Below, piece by piece: positions 13,786-57,960 of a stretch of 64,000 nt of DNA (its first letter is position 1; each line of letters opens with the position of its first letter). The translations under genes and the position numbers were made by a program. The notes beneath the pieces are model-generated. The model searched no databases, was not told the origin of the DNA, and saw only the letters and a program-made list of their open reading frames with translations. The DNA comes from Octopus vulgaris (lineage: Eukaryota), in NCBI GenBank assembly GCA_951406725.2, contig OX597818.1, forward strand, positions 73,036,001 through 73,100,000, read 5' to 3'.

Positions 13786-14035
13786 TATCGCATAAAAGAT
13801 CGTGGGTAAGGCTAAAACAATGCGAAGTAAATGCAAGGTAAATCACAAGAAAACATGTGAATTAATATAGACTTACCCTGTATACAATAATTCGTCAATT
13901 TCTTGAAAATGAGTTCATAACCCCGAAATATTGGATACAAGGTAAATCTACATTAATTCATATATTTTTCTTGTGATATCCCTTGCATTTACTTCGCATT
14001 GTTTTAGCCTTACTCGCGATCTTTTATACAATATA
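13786..14035. repeat. Foldback of about 250 bp with a hammerhead-like motif in the loop and right arm
   Basis: gtaaggctaaaacaatgcgaagtaaatgcaagg versus ccttgcatttacttcgcattgttttagccttac. TTGAAAA...GAAAtaTT at 13903-13932. Confidence 0.8.
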
Positions 14036-14394
14036 TTGTAGTTAATGCTTCATAGTAATTATTCCATATATTCTTTTTATAGATTATTCATATTTTGTTT
14101 ATAGATTATTAACATAGTATTTGTAAATATTATTTTATTTGGAACACTATATATTACTAACATAGTGTTTGTAAATTTTTGTATATTTTCGTATATCTTT
14201 TATATTTTTATTCCTTACTTTATTCGTGTAACTTTTATTTCTGTAACTTTTTATCTTTATTTGAATTTATATCTGAATTATGGCTTGTACTGTAGAGTCC
14301 AGCGAAACTAATTTAAACATACCTATTTTACACATATTTAAGTGTTTAAAAAAATTAAAATATAGTTTATTGTATTGAACGTTGATAAAGTTAT

Positions 14395-14457
14395 GTAAGG
14401 GCCTGATGATCGGGCTGGCATCTTGAGAGGGGTTCCAGGGAAACACGGAGTCCTTGC
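14395..14457 (+). ncRNA. Decayed minimal type I hammerhead motif
   Basis: gtaagggc-CTGATGA-...ctgg..ccag-g-GAAA-cacgga-gtccttgc. Stem I pairs over 8 bp including G-U. UH site mutated. Confidence 0.5.
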
Positions 14458-14464
14458 AAAAGCA

Positions 14465-15060
14465 AGGATCTTTTATTGTAATCCCCTTTAAAATGTTTCC
14501 ACACCAATAGCTAAATTATTTTTCAAAATACTGCAAAAATACTTCCAACTGAACTACAAATATTACAAACTGATACACGAATACAAGATAAAATTGTTAT
14601 ACTCCACTAGCAACAAATTTAAAAATATTATAGCCAAGTACAACCACCAGCGTGGCAAACCTAAAACATAGACACAAAAACGATTGCAATTGTAGAACTC
14701 TTTCATACTGCCATCGAGGGGAACAAATCCCAAATATAATCACGAAAAGGAGACCGACTACTATAACTACGGACATAGGATCTACAAGAAACCAGATCAA
14801 GGGACGATAGAGTCAATTAGCGCACCGTGTTCACAATCCAAGCAGAGAAAGTGATACGTCACTATACAAATATATATGGCAATTGATATCTCAAAACATT
14901 GTTGGGCATCAATTGAAAAATACTTTCACATGCACAAGAAAATCAAGGTAATAAGAATGTCAAATTTGTACTAAAGAATATGATCACATTCTAACATATA
15001 TGAACCAAATTCTGAATGAAAATTCGAACTGCTCTTTTCATTCAAGCCCAATCTCATGAA
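14465..15060 (+). mobile_element. Penelope-like element fragment (RT-EN linker plus GIY-YIG), decayed
   Basis: With frame breaks: NVSTPIAKLFFKILQKYF...KIKLLYSTSNKFKNIIAKYN, CNCR, IGSTRNQIKGR, DTSLYKYIWQL, CQICTKE. Confidence 0.75.
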
Positions 15061-16647
15061 AACTCTAAAACACTCTTGAAACAAACAATCTTTTCTAATG
15101 GTTAAACTTAATACCTCAGAAACTCCCCTCTATCTACCTACTCTGTAAACAATAAAACACATCATTACATCTTTACATTTTTACAGTTTTAGATTAAGCA
15201 AATACTTTGGATATTATGTTTCCCCAACTAAAATATTTACAAAATATGTTATAACTACACAAAACTACATACACACACATAATAAAAAGAGAGACCCATT
15301 TCCTTCTTCCGTTTGTTTTTTAAATTTCATTTTATTCCCATTTTCATATATGAATATATACACACCTTGTATGATGCCTCCACTTTAGTATATATCTAGA
15401 ACAGAATGTTTGAAGAAACTATACACAAAGAGGAAATAAACGCTATCTTAATAAAAGACAAAGGTTACAATTCCTATATACTAATCAAATTCCTTAGAAG
15501 AACGAACACCTAGAGATATACATATAAACATACAATCTTTGCCTAAATACTTTTGCGAAAATCAAAGCACAAGAGAAACAATTTTCTATAATAGCAAGGA
15601 CATGATATACCTGACTAATAAACCCATTTTACTACCTACCTACAGTCTTTTGTAAAAATAACTGACACTCCTAATTACAAAGAGCGTAAATATTGGACTT
15701 GTTTACATTTTAACTTTACTTTGTCAGAGCAATAATAATACAAATAGCAACAAAAATACTGCTACACACACTGCATACCCAACAAAATAGAAACACCTGC
15801 ACGTTTGTATACACAATTCTACATCCATGAATACATTAAAAAGTAGCATAACCCCATATTTAGTAAATAAAGAATTTCCCTTAATCATGTCTCCATAGTA
15901 ACCCAACCTAAAGACCTAATTACTTCTCCACTGAAACTCACGTACTCAAGGAAGATTTTAATTTAACAGCGACTATGTAAAGGCAAGACTATCATACATT
16001 TTTGTGTATATTAAGTGTGTATACTTGTTAATAAATCGTGTTAATATAGATTTCTTGCGCATGTGCATGAAGTGGGAGTTGTTAATAGAGCTGTACATCT
16101 TTACACTAATATATCTCAACATATACTTATAATATCTAATAATTTTATATCGCTTTGTTTGTTTCCCTCTTATATATTTCCGTTATATAAATCGTAGAAC
16201 TTTTCACGTTTTATGAGTTTTCAACATTTTAACAGTAATTTTTGTTTCAAGTATAATAGAATTATCCCAAAGTCTCTGGTCAATGTTCTTGCCTTTACCT
16301 TTCATTAATATCTATTATTTATCGCCCTTCCACATCTTTCTGCGCCCTTAAAATGCTCCAAGGTTCCTTAAGAAAAGCCATTCCTTAAGAAAAGCCATTG
16401 ATGGTAGTAAATTATGATAAAATAAACTTATAAGTTTGTTATGAACAGATCATGCAGATGAATGCAAATTGATTTACGGATTTTCCTGTATTTTTCATTT
16501 AATAATAATTCATTTATTGCTGATAATTTTGCCTTTAAGTGGTCCACATATGAATATATAATACTGCGTCTGATGCGTTTGTTTCTTTGCGTTTTAGTAT
16601 ACTTGATGTGAATAAATGCAAATAGTTCACACACATACACAATTATA

Positions 16648-16733
<86 letters not shown>

Positions 16734-16773
16734 TATATGTGTGCGTATCCAGATGTGTCTGTATTGTAAATTC

Positions 16774-16829
<56 letters not shown>

Positions 16830-17495
16830 CAATGAATAATTTCCGAACAACCAAACAAGATTGAAAAGATTTATCGTTTTCTGTGATTCATATACACGTA
16901 TACCTACACACAGTAATATATCAATATAATTGAAGATTTATGCATATATGTACACACTCACATATACATATACTTTTGTATGTATTTATAGATATATACG
17001 CACACACATACACACTCACATATATGCATCTATGTAATGTATGTATATATAGACTGTCATTCAGGTAAGAGATAAACAGACTTGGTCTCGTCTGCCCGAA
17101 GATTCTTAATATATTTTAAAATTTTAATGTGTTACTATGAAAAAAGTCGAATTTTGTGAAACGTGTGCTATATAGATTTAGAGAGTGTTTTATTTATGAT
17201 CTATTATATTGTGTTATTTCCTAGCAGTCTTCCGTCACCAAAAGATATAAAATACATTTTTTCTTGTTAATGTTATATCGCTATATAATAAAAGTTAGTA
17301 ATATTCGGAATCTTCTGAATATGGTTTTATGTAAGAACGCTTATAGAGAAATATTTATTGCAAAAAAGCCCCCGCTTTCTAGAAGTTTATGCTCTCCATA
17401 TATATCAGATATACTCAATGCTACGAAACCACGTTCGTTGCGACTTGTTTCTTCGGATTGTGAAATTGACACAAAGTCTCCCTTTCACTCTCTAC

Positions 17496-17548
<53 letters not shown>

Positions 17549-17654
17549 ACCTCAGTAAAAATATATTCATATTATCGCCCAAGGCCAAGAAATTTAGGCC
17601 AAAATGTTAGTCGATGACATTGAAGTCAATAATTTAGCAATACCTAAATTACAT

Positions 17655-17725
17655 ACTCCGAAAAGATGATAGGCGAATTTGAATCCGGCGGGATTTGGAC
17701 AAAGAACGTAAAATGTTGAAACCTT
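17655..17725 (-). mobile_element. Decayed fragment of the tRNA-SINE family seen at 42048
   Basis: Reverse complement resembles gttcaaattccgccgaggtcgactttgcctttcatcctttcg. Confidence 0.45.
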
Positions 17726-17759
17726 TTGTTCTCGCACTAATAATTCTGTCAGTGAGTAG

Positions 17760-17816
<57 letters not shown>

Positions 17817-19216
17817 TGTGAGTGTGAGTTTGTGTAGGAAAATAGAGACATAGCTTTCAGTTATATTTCTGGAAAAAGTTATTTTAATGTAATGGTGTTC
17901 TAACAATATTATATTATTATATTTACTTGGAAGTTTCATTTTAATTATTGAAATTCAAACCTTAATACGTATAATCTATGCGATTAAATTTAATTTGTAA
18001 ATAACAGAATATAAAATCTATAATATTTCATTAAAGTTTTGAAGTAAATAATTGTATTTTCTTATCTATTTCTATCGTTGCTGCTCTGTTTTAATTAAGT
18101 GATATATCTACAGGAAAATATTTCCAATTTATTACTAAATATGATTTCCATCTCCATCTCTGTCTCTGTCTCCTTCTGCAAAATCACTCTCTCAACCTCT
18201 TTTTAACTTCTTTCTCTCATTCCTACAAGGAACTTGCAAATAACTTCCAAATTACTATTCGATATTCACGTCTGTTGTTCTTTATATTATATATAACGCA
18301 TTGTAACTACCAACATCTAAATACTAACCGATACAGATACACGCACACGCACGCAAACATACACTCGCTTAGATCGTGTATGTATGTGTACCTGCATATG
18401 CTTGTATATATACAAACACACACGCGCACACGTACATGCACACAAACACGCACACGCGCACACACACCACACACACATACACACAAACACACACATATGA
18501 AGAAAAGAAGAGTATTTCCATGCTGAAAATAATATTGGTGAATCTGTTTGGGGATTTGAAGATGCATCTGAATCTCAAAACGTTTTTCAATTTTATATCA
18601 GATTCATGAAAACACCAAACCGGTTTCGAGAATTTCTTGTTTATGAATGGTAAAATGCAAAAATAAATAAGGGATAGGGATTAGGAGAGGTAAAATTTAC
18701 AAGTGAATATTCAGAAAAAAGTGCTTAAATGATCAAATGTTCTTACAAATACCAGTGAGTTTCAGAGATAGACAGTAATACAAGTTAAAATATTCGGTGA
18801 TGTTCATAAGTCATACATGATTGAAAAACGAGTTTATCTTATACTTTTTAAAAAACCTTATCGTATCTAATTCTTAAACTAGTACAATACTACTAAACTG
18901 TCAATATGTGTGTGTGTATTTTAATGACCTGTAGGAACACCGTATTTCGTTATGCAACTATAGTACACTACGAAGTATATTAAACGGTTTTATAAGTCAA
19001 TATCGTGTTCTACTGTGTTACCAGAGCTATTACATTGCTTGTTAAGGTCATCTCTACAGATTTTCTATAGACGTTATAGTCAACACAGACTTTTTATTGG
19101 CATATAAAAGCGTTTAATGTATTTTATTGTTCAGTTCTATATTTGAGTGATGAGGAATTATGTATATTATTTACATTATTTACATTTCAGGGATATTTGT
19201 CATCTTGTTTGTTGTT

Positions 19217-19262
19217 AACTTGACGTTTCGGCTGATGTACTCTCCAGCCTTCATCAGGTGTC
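19217..19262 (-). ncRNA. Minimal type I hammerhead (left arm, stem I damaged)
   Basis: gacac-CTGATGA-a-ggctg-gagagtacat-cagcc-GAA-acgTC-aagtt. Confidence 0.6.
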
Positions 19263-19336
19263 CTGGGGGAATTTCGAAACTGGGTTCTCATTCTTAAGGT
19301 ATTTTTGCGATGTTGTTGTTGTTGTTATTATTATTA

Positions 19337-19390
<54 letters not shown>

Positions 19391-19516
19391 TCACTGCCTG
19401 GAATCGAACTCGGGATCTTAACCACTACGCCATATGCCCACGAGCATATGGCGTATTGGTCAAGAGCGCCGGCTACTAACCCCAATATTCCCAGTTCGAT
19501 TCCAGGCAGTGACCTA

Positions 19517-19612
<96 letters not shown>

Positions 19613-19694
19613 AAGAAGAACAACAACAACAACAACAACATCAACATCGGAAAAATACCTTAGAAATAAGAACCCAGGTTCGAAATTCCCCCGG

Positions 19695-19740
19695 GATACC
19701 TGATGAAGGCTGGAGAGTACATCAGCCGAAATGTTGTGTT
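19695..19740 (+). ncRNA. Minimal type I hammerhead (right arm)
   Basis: gatac-CTGATGA-a-ggctg-gagagtacat-cagcc-GAA-atgTT-gtgtt. Stem I gatac/gtgtt, 5-bp stem II, loop III likely derived from palindromic AACGTT. Confidence 0.75.
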
Positions 19741-20044
19741 AACAGCAAACAAAATGGGGACAAATCTCCGTCAAATGTAAATAACGTATATTTTGCTGTT
19801 GTATTATGATTGCGGAATGAAATACGATGTCCTTACAGGTCTCTAATACTTACGTACCAGCTTCCAGCAATGTGTTTAATATATAGAATTGGTGTATCCA
19901 TTAATGTGCAACTCTTATATTTAGTGGCTATTTAAGTAATAAGTTCTTGGATGCTTAATAGGTTCTGTTGTTTATATTAGGCGTCTCGGATACAAAACGA
20001 CGTAGCAAAATCAGAGCTGGACATAATTTGTAAAGAAAATCTAT

Positions 20045-20110
<66 letters not shown>

Positions 20111-20189
20111 CATACATACACACGTGTGTGTACATGCCATGCTGTATACATCACTTTTAAGTTTTTAATATTTATAATAATAATAATAA

Positions 20190-20420
20190 ACTGAAGATCA
20201 AATGTCTTTCCCTAGTCATACACTCTTAAGGTCGGTTTCATCTCCCCTGGAGGGGACGCACCTCGTCGCAGGATCGCTCATGTTTGCCAGTAAAGTGGAC
20301 TAAAGCAAGGTCAACTGAAAAGTTTTGCTCAAGAAGACGAGTGGACAAGTTCATGATTCAATACGACGATCTAACGACTGTGAGTGCATCACCCTAACCA
20401 CTAAGCCACGCGTCTCCACA
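20190..20420 (-). mobile_element. tRNA-derived SINE (CORE-like), decayed
   Basis: Minus strand starts gtggagacgcgtggcttagtggttagggtg (A box), then cttgagcaaaac...ttgctttagtccact. Confidence 0.65.
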
Positions 20421-55333: not shown

Positions 55334-56705
55334 AAACACACATACACGCACACACACGTACACACACGCGCGCGCACATACACACAAAGACAAGCTAACT
55401 GACCGATAAAAACAAAATGTGAAAGAAAGAGATGGCGGAGTATTTTCCTTTCCATTTCTATGTTCGACTATTTTATTATTCTCTGAAGCTACAAATTATC
55501 TTATCCCAAATAATTTTATTTCTGAGAATAAATTGAACCTCAACATGTGTTTTAAATATTCGGTTTAAATTGCGCCTTGTTTTTGTCTCAGTTGCAATGT
55601 GGATATAAATTTAACTAATATCTCAACTTAGATTGCAATGACCATCTGGTTAGCTATGAATGCGAATTGCGCTTAATGACAACATAAAATAAAAAGATTG
55701 AGTTTAGATTTTATCACGCAGGTTTGAAAATATATGGTAATATATGAATCATCAACAAAATTGTCTTTTCAAAATCTATTTTATATGAAAGGAAACAATT
55801 ACATTGACTAGTTTCCGGAATTGAAATATGAATATTCCAAGATAAATAGGTATTCCATTGTTTCTGTCTAGATTTGATACATTGCTAATACGTAAAACAA
55901 TAGATAAGTTTTAAAACAGATTATATAAACATCAAAGCCCAATTTCCAAAGATAATTACTTTCTCGAAAATAAAGGAACAAGAAATATTGTGGAATAAAT
56001 CAAGCAGTAATTGCAAACACAGATTCAAATCAGAATACAATTCCAAACTGGAGTATAATTTTATCAAAATGATATCTCGAAACTCGAAACTTTTCTCATT
56101 TGACCAAAATTATGAAATTGAAAAATATCCATTCTTTCCGTCCTTAGAAACAACGCAATAGACAGAATTATTCTAACAGAAAGAAATGTACAAAAGGAAA
56201 TGTACTTTATTAGTAAAATTAATTTAAACAGTTACCTTATTTCATACATTGACAATTCCTGTCCAATATACAATGGGTTTACTGGAAACGTATATAATAT
56301 TCTGAATTTCTCCATTTATTCTCCATTTCTTTGAAAATAATTGGACGAATACATAGCAACAATAACGTCTTTAGGAAATGAACAGAAAATCTTGAGGCAT
56401 GTATATTGATGGCGTGGAGGAAAGGCTAATACGTTTCACAACTGAAAAATCTTTAGAGACCAAAAATTCTGTGAGTATTTTTAGATGAGGGACGTATCTA
56501 TCTTTTCCGAGTGACTATGAGTGCGTATACTCAGTGTGAGTGTATATATATATATATGAGTGTGTATGTATGTATGTGTATCTAATACATGAAACAGAAA
56601 TGTGTGTATTCACTTTTAATGCGAAAATTGTTACACAAATTACTTCCATACTTGTGATGCATGAATAATTTGTCCTCGGACAAATGTTAGGCTCTTCCTT
56701 TGATA

Positions 56706-57090
56706 TCTATATATATAAAGCTGAAGTTGTCTGTGTATGGCAGGTTTGGTAGCCTTCAACTAACACTATCTCCTCCGAGACACTGCGGCGCAAGTTGACC
56801 AAAATTGACAGTATGATAGAAGAAGGCTTGCTCTTCATTCCGTAGAAGAAAAAATGCAAATCAGACCATGTTAAGACCAAAAATTATTTAGATCAAAAAG
56901 ATGCTTTGTTTCTATGAAAATCCCTATTTTTTACGAATTTTTGACTGCTGTGTCGCCATTTTCCGGTGTATTTCAACCAGAAAAATGTTCACTTAAAGAG
57001 AATAACAAGCTACATAATGGAAATTTTTTACTTTTCAAAAATTCCAATTCTAAATGGTCAAAACAAACACGAGCAACATTTTTGCTTTGG
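56706..57090 (+). mobile_element. Non-autonomous Helitron 5' part
   Basis: a|tctatatatataaagctgaagttgtctgtg start typical of Helitron 5' ends. 3' CTRR not found. Confidence 0.5.
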
Positions 57091-57189
57091 TCATTCCTAT
57101 TTAAAGAAACCACACATTTATATACTACATCCTTTAAGTTACATTTGTTATTAAATTTAAAATTATTTTCGTCCCTACGATTACAAGTT

Positions 57190-57960
57190 TTTTAGTCACT
57201 ACAATTATTATTGGGAAAATTATTTAATCTATTAAAGTAATATTTATTTAACTTATGTTTACTTAGTGATGAAATAATATTAACTACATTATTAGTAGTC
57301 GAATATCCTACTCCTATATTATTTTTAGAAAAACTCTTATTGCATATTTTATTTTCGATAATAAATGATTCTATTGTTTTAGTGATTTCTTTTATAATAT
57401 TAATTTTAACCCGGGTCCCATAAGGAAATATCAACCAGTTTATTTTATTATTTGTATTTATATTTATATTATTATTTCTCGTATCCTTATTTACACTATA
57501 GTTATTATCATCGTTATCATTTATAATTGGATCTAATTTTTGCTTATCCTTTAATCTTATATATTTCCTTATATTTCTATTTTTATTTTTATTCGTCGTT
57601 CTATTTTAAAGTTTTTGTATGCTCCTTATATTCTATAAAATTCCGATGTGTTTCTCTATTATAATTATTATAATTGTTATTAATTTTGTTTTTATTTTTA
57701 TTTCTATTCCCATCTTCATTGTCATTTACCTTTTTATTTATATTAGTATTATCGGGGTCTTTAGCGTTGTTATTTTTTGTGTAATTGTTGCTATTTGTAT
57801 TATTATTGTATCCTTCTTAAAGCTTCAATATAGTAGGTTGAATGCTTTAGGAAGCTCTCATATTTCGATGAATGCATATTTGTTACTAGATACCATACGT
57901 ACCCTCATGAAACGCGTATAGTCCGTAATATGGAAAATTTGGGTGTTATGAATAGAAATA
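57190..57960 (-). mobile_element. Penelope-like thumb/linker fragment, AT-rich and decayed
   Basis: FLKHSTYYIEALRR and PYGTRVKINIIKEITKTIESF...NNIGVGYSTTNNVVNIISS, homologous to 14465-14640. Confidence 0.6.

Follow-up and report, generated by a model that had tools for sequence, protein, structure and literature searches.

The closest described relatives of the element analyzed here are the EN+ Penelope-like elements (PLEs). In the anole Poseidon element the ORF begins in a hammerhead ribozyme, and the sections of the same report on in vitro activity describe two internal starts of reverse transcription, nicking of both DNA strands, a predicted protein dimer and uncut RNA as the template (PMC11167929). 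The pLTR of Adineta Pen2a includes the first codons, and Adineta pLTRs begin with palindromes; the parts of that report on these elements make no mention of tRNA and list putative TATA/Inr-like promoters (PMC3846280). For Penelope of D. virilis, the corresponding section describes a DPE-containing promoter with an intron (PMC2377424). The Penelope promoters of these two reports resemble those of Pol II. Inverted copies, a one-sided tail and short target site duplications (TSDs) are described Penelope features in the relevant passages of two reports (PMC8557442, PMC3846280), and the text on metazoan PLE hammerheads notes dual motifs lying 100-700 bp apart on opposite strands (PMC4209133).

We analyzed a window of 64,000 nucleotides of Octopus vulgaris DNA containing a foldback that a sequence-only reading had taken for a SINE-ribozyme hybrid. 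The foldback is real: its two arms, 19132-19439 on the minus strand and 19436-19788 on the plus strand, align head-to-head around the centre GCCC-AC-GAGC, which lies where that reading had put it (Table 1), and the longest inverted pair between them measures 186 nt at 83% identity. Each arm has A and B boxes followed by a triplet run, a conserved body of ~145-175 nt that contains the CUGAUGA...GAAA core, and finally AT-rich sequence. The tRNA-like heads with their A and B boxes were confirmed on both arms, as was the 22-nt deletion in the left one. The A-box T and B-box G of the head are 45 nt apart, as in tRNA; the right arm has this spacing, and because of the deletion the left has only 23 nt.

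Table 1. Features of the foldback locus, in positions of the window
Feature	Position	Strand	Remarks
TSD, left copy, 12 bp	19120..19131	+	10/12 identical to 19789-19800
Left arm body = Penelope ORF start, long 3' end (ORF nt ~154)	19132..19312	-	
Left minimal type I hammerhead, inside ORF	19217..19262	-	Predicted cut after 19222
ORF start codon, intact in left arm	19289..19291	-	First codon of 835-codon majority ORF
Left leader (TAA)n(CAA)n	19313..19386	-	
Left tRNA-derived head, 22-nt deletion	19387..19439	-	A box 19432-19422, B box 19409-19400
Junction of the two heads, at the hairpin GCCC-NN-GGGC native to the element	19436..19445	.	
Right tRNA-derived head	19436..19518	+	A box 19449-19459, B box 19494-19503
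Right leader (TAA)n(GAA)n(CAA)n	19517..19644	+	
Right arm body = Penelope ORF start, short 3' end (ORF nt ~126)	19645..19788	+	
Right minimal type I hammerhead, inside ORF	19695..19740	+	Predicted cut after 19735 (ORF nt 70)
TSD, right copy	19789..19800	+	Pairs with 19120-19131

Several features had escaped the earlier reading: a 12-bp target duplication encloses the whole pair, the 3' ends of the two arms are unequal, and the body is protein-coding. The left arm body, 86% identical to positions 1-174 of the family majority, translates to the N terminus of the ORF with one in-frame stop. The right arm body is 89% identical to majority positions 1-146; its peptide matches the N terminus of the protein P0008 (9/15 identical, E 0.002), and its start-codon site at 19666-19668 reads ATA. 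The locus is a dead, ordinary-looking Penelope pLTR insertion. We consider it quite probable that it consists of two short 5'-truncated terminal repeats of a Poseidon-type Penelope, laid down as one head-to-head insertion, and that the head sets the 5' end of the element's RNA. Elsewhere in the window, another tRNA-headed SINE-like repeat lies 400 nt downstream of the foldback, at 20180-20418 on the minus strand, with an A box TGGCTTAGTGG near 20407 and a (TTA)n tail. Stop-free frames of 501 and 717 nt at ~56252-57490 on the reverse strand (offsets counted on that strand) resemble a CR1/L2-type reverse transcriptase (RT) fragment.

The repeating unit almost certainly belongs to an autonomous Penelope element of Poseidon type, of which it represents the pLTR and the beginning of the ORF. 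Three of the first 29 related loci (L005, L021 and L029) have an RT/GIY-YIG ORF whose 3' end lies directly upstream of the head, and a search with this ORF-end region gave 30 loci, all matching; those inspected likewise had the ORF end immediately before the head. A search with the 5' part of the ORF yielded copies whose body is continuous into the ORF, with the head in front in L192, L204, L206 and L209. The supposed SINE body thus consists of the initial ~50 codons of the ORF in a Poseidon-type Penelope. Partial tandems have the head and body before the ORF (L192, L204, L209) or after it (L063, L064), and head, triplet run and body together are the pLTR of the element. The column-wise majority is a unit of 2,634 nt, the triplet run left out, in the order head, (TAA)n(CAA)n, 20 nt, ATG, RT/GIY-YIG ORF of 835 codons, stop, ~32 nt and next head. 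Its protein contains the motifs DKG, GLPKIH, YVDD, CxCxxxYxGET and HxW. It is 56% identical to P0008, which comes from another source, over residues 11-831, including the hammerhead-encoded peptide, and 37% identical to the Anolis protein P0100; the relatives P0001 and P0008 span 56-75% identity. Pfam RVT_1 matched both relatives, and a 189-aa fragment of the element gave no match to it. Judging by similarity, the element would belong to the Penelope/Poseidon clade. The Penelope-type machinery that the sequence-only reading had proposed is supported; the RT and GIY-YIG ORF belongs to the element itself. Contigs of organisms B, D, E and F cover all bins of an ORF-end/head/body locus, and piece X4 (record 25) spans the head and spacer to about the ORF stop; these contigs show presence only. 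Viral contigs contained no relatives.

Some copies carry other sequence. About 1.2 kb of another LINE lies inside the triplet run of L062 (minus strand), and similar cases were seen in L002, L011 and L025, where LINE 3' fragments with a restriction-like endonuclease end interrupt the (TAA)n run and separate head from body. We take these fragments to be Dong/R4-like; the (TAA)n run is a landing pad for them. Three ORF-bearing loci (L070, L081 and L087, in G000:C31) have their whole 4-kb flanks in common, which suggests a segmental duplication or a tandem array holding a copy.

Both minimal hammerheads proved real. Their cores, starting at 19700 (+) and 19257 (-), are the only two CUGAUGA...GAAA core matches in the window, and the predicted cleavage site on the right arm is the one claimed for it. 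A 34-nt hammerhead pattern had 4,177 exact matches in G000, the 2.8-Gb animal assembly in which the window lies (on C5), against 0 for the reversed control, so the motif is not due to chance. Both ribozymes of the window are damaged, the left being without the 3' strand of stem I and the right having a C-to-U change in the palindromic helix III. The family majority keeps the core, stems I and II and the palindromic helix III intact, as had been anticipated for the consensus, with GUU as the cleavage triplet; a search against Rfam returned no hammerhead match. The suggestion that the ribozyme is dimeric is not supported, since the two ribozymes of a head-to-head pair sit on opposite strands and no dimer can fold within one transcript. 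The arms moreover extend 53 and 90 nt beyond the predicted cut, so the end of the element is not set by the ribozyme. The hammerhead occupies ORF codons ~11-25. The N termini of the related Penelope proteins P0008, P0124 and P0163 retain PD[DE]G-x-R...KR[CR]V, the peptide encoded here by the hammerhead core, and the ribozyme-in-ORF arrangement is therefore conserved in this subgroup.

Alignment to host tRNAs suggests that the head is tRNA-derived. Compared with tRNAs from 30 fetched host loci, which represent few isotypes, it matched tRNA-Arg best, at 51/79 alignment columns (z ~7 versus shuffles), and in the family majority the A and B boxes match the consensus at exact tRNA spacing. Automated searches gave no support: Rfam found no tRNA match for the head at gathering or E-value thresholds, ARAGORN detected no tRNA in the window and, in a relaxed run on the majority head, produced only a mis-registered fold, and a short tRNA 3'-end pattern had no match in G000. 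In 80 other Penelope loci, many of them cut short, no pair of A and B boxes was seen next to the ORF end; one pair lies inside a locus (L227). In L296, a tRNA-Cys(GCA) gene forms a cluster with two copies derived from it, one read as Cys(ACA) and the other as Ser(ACT); the element head has CT-ACT-AA where the anticodon would be. A second symmetric junction recurs at head position +9 in L010, L027, L133 and L147, centred on a GGTTA...TAACC inverted repeat in the former D/anticodon region. The octopus SINEs OK, OR1 and OR2, reportedly described by Ohshima and Okada in 1994, are said to have tRNA-derived heads, of Arg origin in OR1 and OR2. In the text of one report, OR2 is cited as a CORE-SINE (PMC4758252). 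Compared by description alone, an octopus SINE may have donated the head, or short copies of the element may once have been described as a SINE.

The positions where the copies end bear on the role of the head. Among 149 arms, the 5' end lay within the body in 32 and within the triplet run (or at an insertion in it) in 35; the other 82 extended as far as the head. In 60 of these it fell in the interval from -26 to +12 relative to the A box, in nine it was further inside, and 13 continued into the ORF end. The end rate was ~0.04 per nt at -26 to +12 versus 0.002 elsewhere, an approximately 20-fold difference. Counts of exact pattern matches are in line with this, with 2,108 for the head and 347 for the stretch directly upstream. 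A finer pass over 101 heads included 47 arms joined to flank or to the body of the partner, with 30 ends at -14..-7 (seven of these arms carried short fold-back stubs and were assigned to -14 by rule), nine at -6..0, six at +1..+12, two beyond and none at -15..-60. The 5' ends of the copies form a sharp wall 13-14 nt upstream of the A box, and such an abrupt upstream limit, tailing off downstream, is the pattern that would be expected of a fixed RNA 5' end. A distance of 13-14 nt upstream of an A box is usual for a Pol III start. It is likely that the head marks the start of the element's RNA, in which case the RNA 5' end of the right head would lie near 19436; whether the polymerase at the head is Pol III or Pol II is close to an even choice. 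None of the listed sequence records carrying the family is registered as RNA. Three raw RNA runs of organism C covered head and body heavily on both strands equally, with no pile-up of starts, from libraries ill-suited to short or uncapped transcripts, and covered the ORF interior thinly. These runs and one contig set, with equal strands and no start sites, were read as passive read-through and count neither for nor against a promoter.

The head might instead be a captured passenger, with a Pol II promoter serving the element as in other Penelopes and the 5' ends arising from folding or annealing of cDNA at the palindrome. The head hairpin, at the very site of the 5' pile-up, ranks within the top 0.35% of windows along the unit for local hairpin strength, and Adineta pLTRs have 5' palindromes and inverted junctions in the sections describing them (PMC3846280); the pile-up thus need not mean a promoter. 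In the same direction point the 308 exactly symmetric junction sites in G000 (native read-through sites number 288), the second small fold-back cluster at another hairpin, at +9, and the DPE-containing internal promoter with spliced intron in the D. virilis account (PMC2377424). However, arms that join flank or body, and in which two heads have no chance to anneal, still show the -14 wall. An RNA stem should also stall reverse transcription at its 3' base (~+3) and not past the loop, the stronger hammerhead stem II shows no obvious pile-up, and both boxes of the majority agree with the consensus and are spaced exactly as in a tRNA. We therefore regard the passenger explanation as doubtful and prefer the reading in which the head sets the RNA 5' end.

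The sense strand of the element is also poor in T runs. The 2,634-nt majority has 13 T3 runs and no T4, where 4.6 T4 were expected (P 0.025 by synonymous-codon shuffle of the ORF), and 54 long genomic copies had an observed/expected (O/E) T4 ratio of 0.19. For 80 other Penelope loci from metagenome contigs, which are single decayed copies from other hosts and not mutually independent, the ratio was 1.37, with T4 present in 79/80; all 48 of these control loci that measured at least 1,500 nt contain T4, the T-matched Poisson chance of zero being 0.0016. The thin host-matched controls were a Dong/R4-like 3' fragment of 1,162 nt, with one T4 run versus 1.0 expected, and 19 unrelated stop-free frames, many probably not genes, with a T4 O/E of 1.27. 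Runs of 2, 3 and 4 nevertheless number 87, 13 and 0 for G and 88, 13 and 0 for T in the element, C runs are enriched, and the G4 O/E of the copies was 0.22. Since G4 is as depleted as T4, which also speaks for the head as a passenger, the absence of T4 may reflect a general compositional bias; its conditional chance is 0.014 if the control ratio is applied and 0.13 with that of the element itself. The lack of T4 is a hint of Pol III transcription, not a demonstration.

We hold only tentatively, as something that leans towards the improbable, the idea that Pol III reads the whole autonomous element end to end from a tRNA-derived type 2 promoter replacing the Pol II promoter. If this were true, Pol III reading would account for a 2.6-kb sense strand without TTTT, the RT/endonuclease would be translated from uncapped RNA through a (UAA)n(CAA)n leader, run-off cDNAs would account for the ~10^4 short back-to-back copies and map the Pol III start to -13/-14, and there would be a route by which SINE-like repeats arise from a Penelope.

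Across the family, head-to-head integration is the commonest form, as had been proposed. We classed 87 insertions anchored on the first listed exact hammerhead matches of contig C1, after three duplicate loci had been dropped, and found 55 head-to-head pairs and 32 single bodies (within ~1.5 kb). Neither a predominance of solo copies with TSDs and LINE-like tails nor loss of the hammerhead core, both named beforehand as observations that would speak against the proposal, was seen. Two clusters of 3' ends were seen, one at body position 174 and the other at ~140-149 (ORF nt ~154 and ~126). One long and one short end were combined in 46 pairs, four pairs were short/short, one was long/long and four were unclassified, so that long+short accounts for 46/51 classifiable pairs (P 1e-9). 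Flanking direct repeats, often of 12-13 bp, scored 8.7 versus 5.2 +/- 0.2 in shuffled pairings (69 pairs, all loci), and since the flanks share target duplications, each pair is one event. The 34-nt hammerhead pattern was exact in 10/34 and 10/43 independently fetched arms, which gives a rough family size of ~14,000-18,000 such arms, with young copies favoured. Head-to-head pairs, a one-sided tail and a short TSD are known Penelope behaviour.

A pair could alternatively stem from fold-back copying of a single cDNA by hairpin self-priming, a process proposed in the relevant part of PMC3846280, rather than from two reverse transcription events. Short stubs were found at 12/101 head junctions, and paired arms share more subfamily variants (1.17 vs 0.58) and rare variants (0.25 vs 0.11) than random arms. 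On the other hand, asymmetry is common among the pairs, one of the two arms breaking off within the body (26/101 head arms have a body partner), and the divergence between paired arms, 8.7%, is near the 9.6% of random arms. The combination of a long and a short 3' end also fits two reverse transcription starts, although trimming of the ends after fold-back is possible. On this evidence we think single-cDNA copying rather improbable.

In the mechanism that we favour, with two reverse transcription events per pair, TFIIIC/Pol III (or Pol II) would initiate transcription at a master copy's head. The element protein, probably dimeric, would nick both DNA strands 12-13 bp apart, and reverse transcription would start at two internal sites, as it does in vitro for anole Poseidon; the two 3' end sites observed here match the two internal starts in the sections of PMC11167929 that report them. 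Each cDNA, begun in whichever copy lies 5'-most in the RNA, would run off the RNA 5' end after 250-350 nt, and the two cDNA ends would be joined, often through the palindrome of the head. The short pairs would be dead ends. With uncut RNA as the template, the insertion would not be shaped by the ribozyme.

Regarding the proposed SINE-ribozyme hybrid, its A/B-box head and minimal hammerhead stand, and its independence as a SINE does not, all parts being native to the autonomous element. Of 14 columns polymorphic among 236 arms, none distinguishes head-start arms (97) from ORF-linked ones (39). At the three main non-CpG sites the variant occurred in 12/39 vs 22/97, 8/39 vs 14/97 and 6/39 vs 15/97 ORF-linked and head-start arms, respectively (Fisher P 0.38, 0.44 and 1.0), and divergence from the majority was 4.9% for head-start and 5.5% for ORF-linked arms. 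Without lineage-specific variants, the short copies look like by-products and not like a SINE family; the body lay near the head in 27/30 head-anchored loci. An independent self-propagating SINE, joining a Pol III head to a ribozyme tail of Penelope origin and mobilized in trans by a Penelope RT, is very unlikely: exact head-pattern matches do outnumber those of the stretch directly upstream (2,108 vs 347, short copies being commoner), a short copy with intact head and long 3' end lacks T4, so that Pol III could transcribe it, and a few heads are without adjoining body (L153, L154, L159), but the autonomous element itself carries head, triplet run and body as native parts, the short copies differ from it neither in lineage-specific variants nor in age, and, by extension from another species, they may lack the ORF past the reverse transcription starts that the anole Poseidon template needs in the portion of the published work describing it. 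Small secondary SINE-like bursts may have occurred within the family.

Two further classes were considered and rejected. A SINE2 with a LINE-derived 3' end and simple-repeat tail does not fit, as the 3' ends are two internal Penelope sites and the triplet run is internal; nor does a SINE2 lineage of its own, with parts native to the autonomous element, no diagnostic variants and the same age. Non-LTR retrozymes are defined by head-to-tail tandem units that each have a type I hammerhead (10.64898/2026.07.22.740005), and the 87 loci contained single copies or inverted pairs and no head-to-tail arrays of complete short units.

Foldback and ribozymes are ordinary Penelope features, and in repeat annotation the ~10^4 arms should be treated as Penelope pLTR fragments rather than SINEs. 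The family is an unusually large natural record of Penelope integration, with a long and a short reverse transcription start per event and a 12-13-bp duplication, and is the genomic counterpart of in vitro two-site initiation. The tRNA-type promoter module would matter if it is used; its use by Pol III would raise the question of how an uncapped RNA carrying an internal ribozyme is translated. We found no autonomous protein-coding retrotransposon driven by Pol III in the open-access literature, and no tRNA-headed Penelope in open-access titles and abstracts; the portion of the PMC13282606 supplement covered contained no family sequences.

As far as the published descriptions bearing on each point extend, the element resembles the EN+ PLEs (Anolis Poseidon PAc, PMC11167929; Adineta Pen2a, PMC3846280; PMC8557442) in its single ORF with RT and C-terminal GIY-YIG, in a pLTR that takes in the ORF start with a hammerhead in the first codons, and in an inverted 5'-truncated copy with a one-armed "tail", a short TSD and a palindrome at the inverted junction; unlike theirs, its pLTR opens with a tRNA-derived A/B-box module and a triplet-repeat leader. 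With the minimal hammerheads of metazoan PLEs, as treated in the pertinent text of PMC4209133, it has in common a 5-bp stem I, an unpaired base before stem II and a palindromic helix III, and its ribozyme, with GUU as the majority triplet, appears to be no different. The SINE-like schistosome repeats Sm-alpha and Sj-alpha likewise combine, within a short repeat, a promoter of Pol III type with a hammerhead downstream of it, but a review describes them as non-coding tandem repeats released by the ribozyme (PMC6765202), whereas here the module belongs to a protein-coding autonomous element whose copies are scattered as inverted pairs, with the cut site internal to the insert. Helenus, Ajax and Cassandra carry tRNA- or 5S-like sequence in a retrotransposon terminal repeat; they are non-autonomous LTR elements in the section that presents them (PMC10886601), in contrast to the autonomous Penelope-like element found here. 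Unusual in the present element, and not met with in the open-access literature searched, is a tRNA-derived A/B-box module at the Penelope promoter position, a short way ahead of the start codon.
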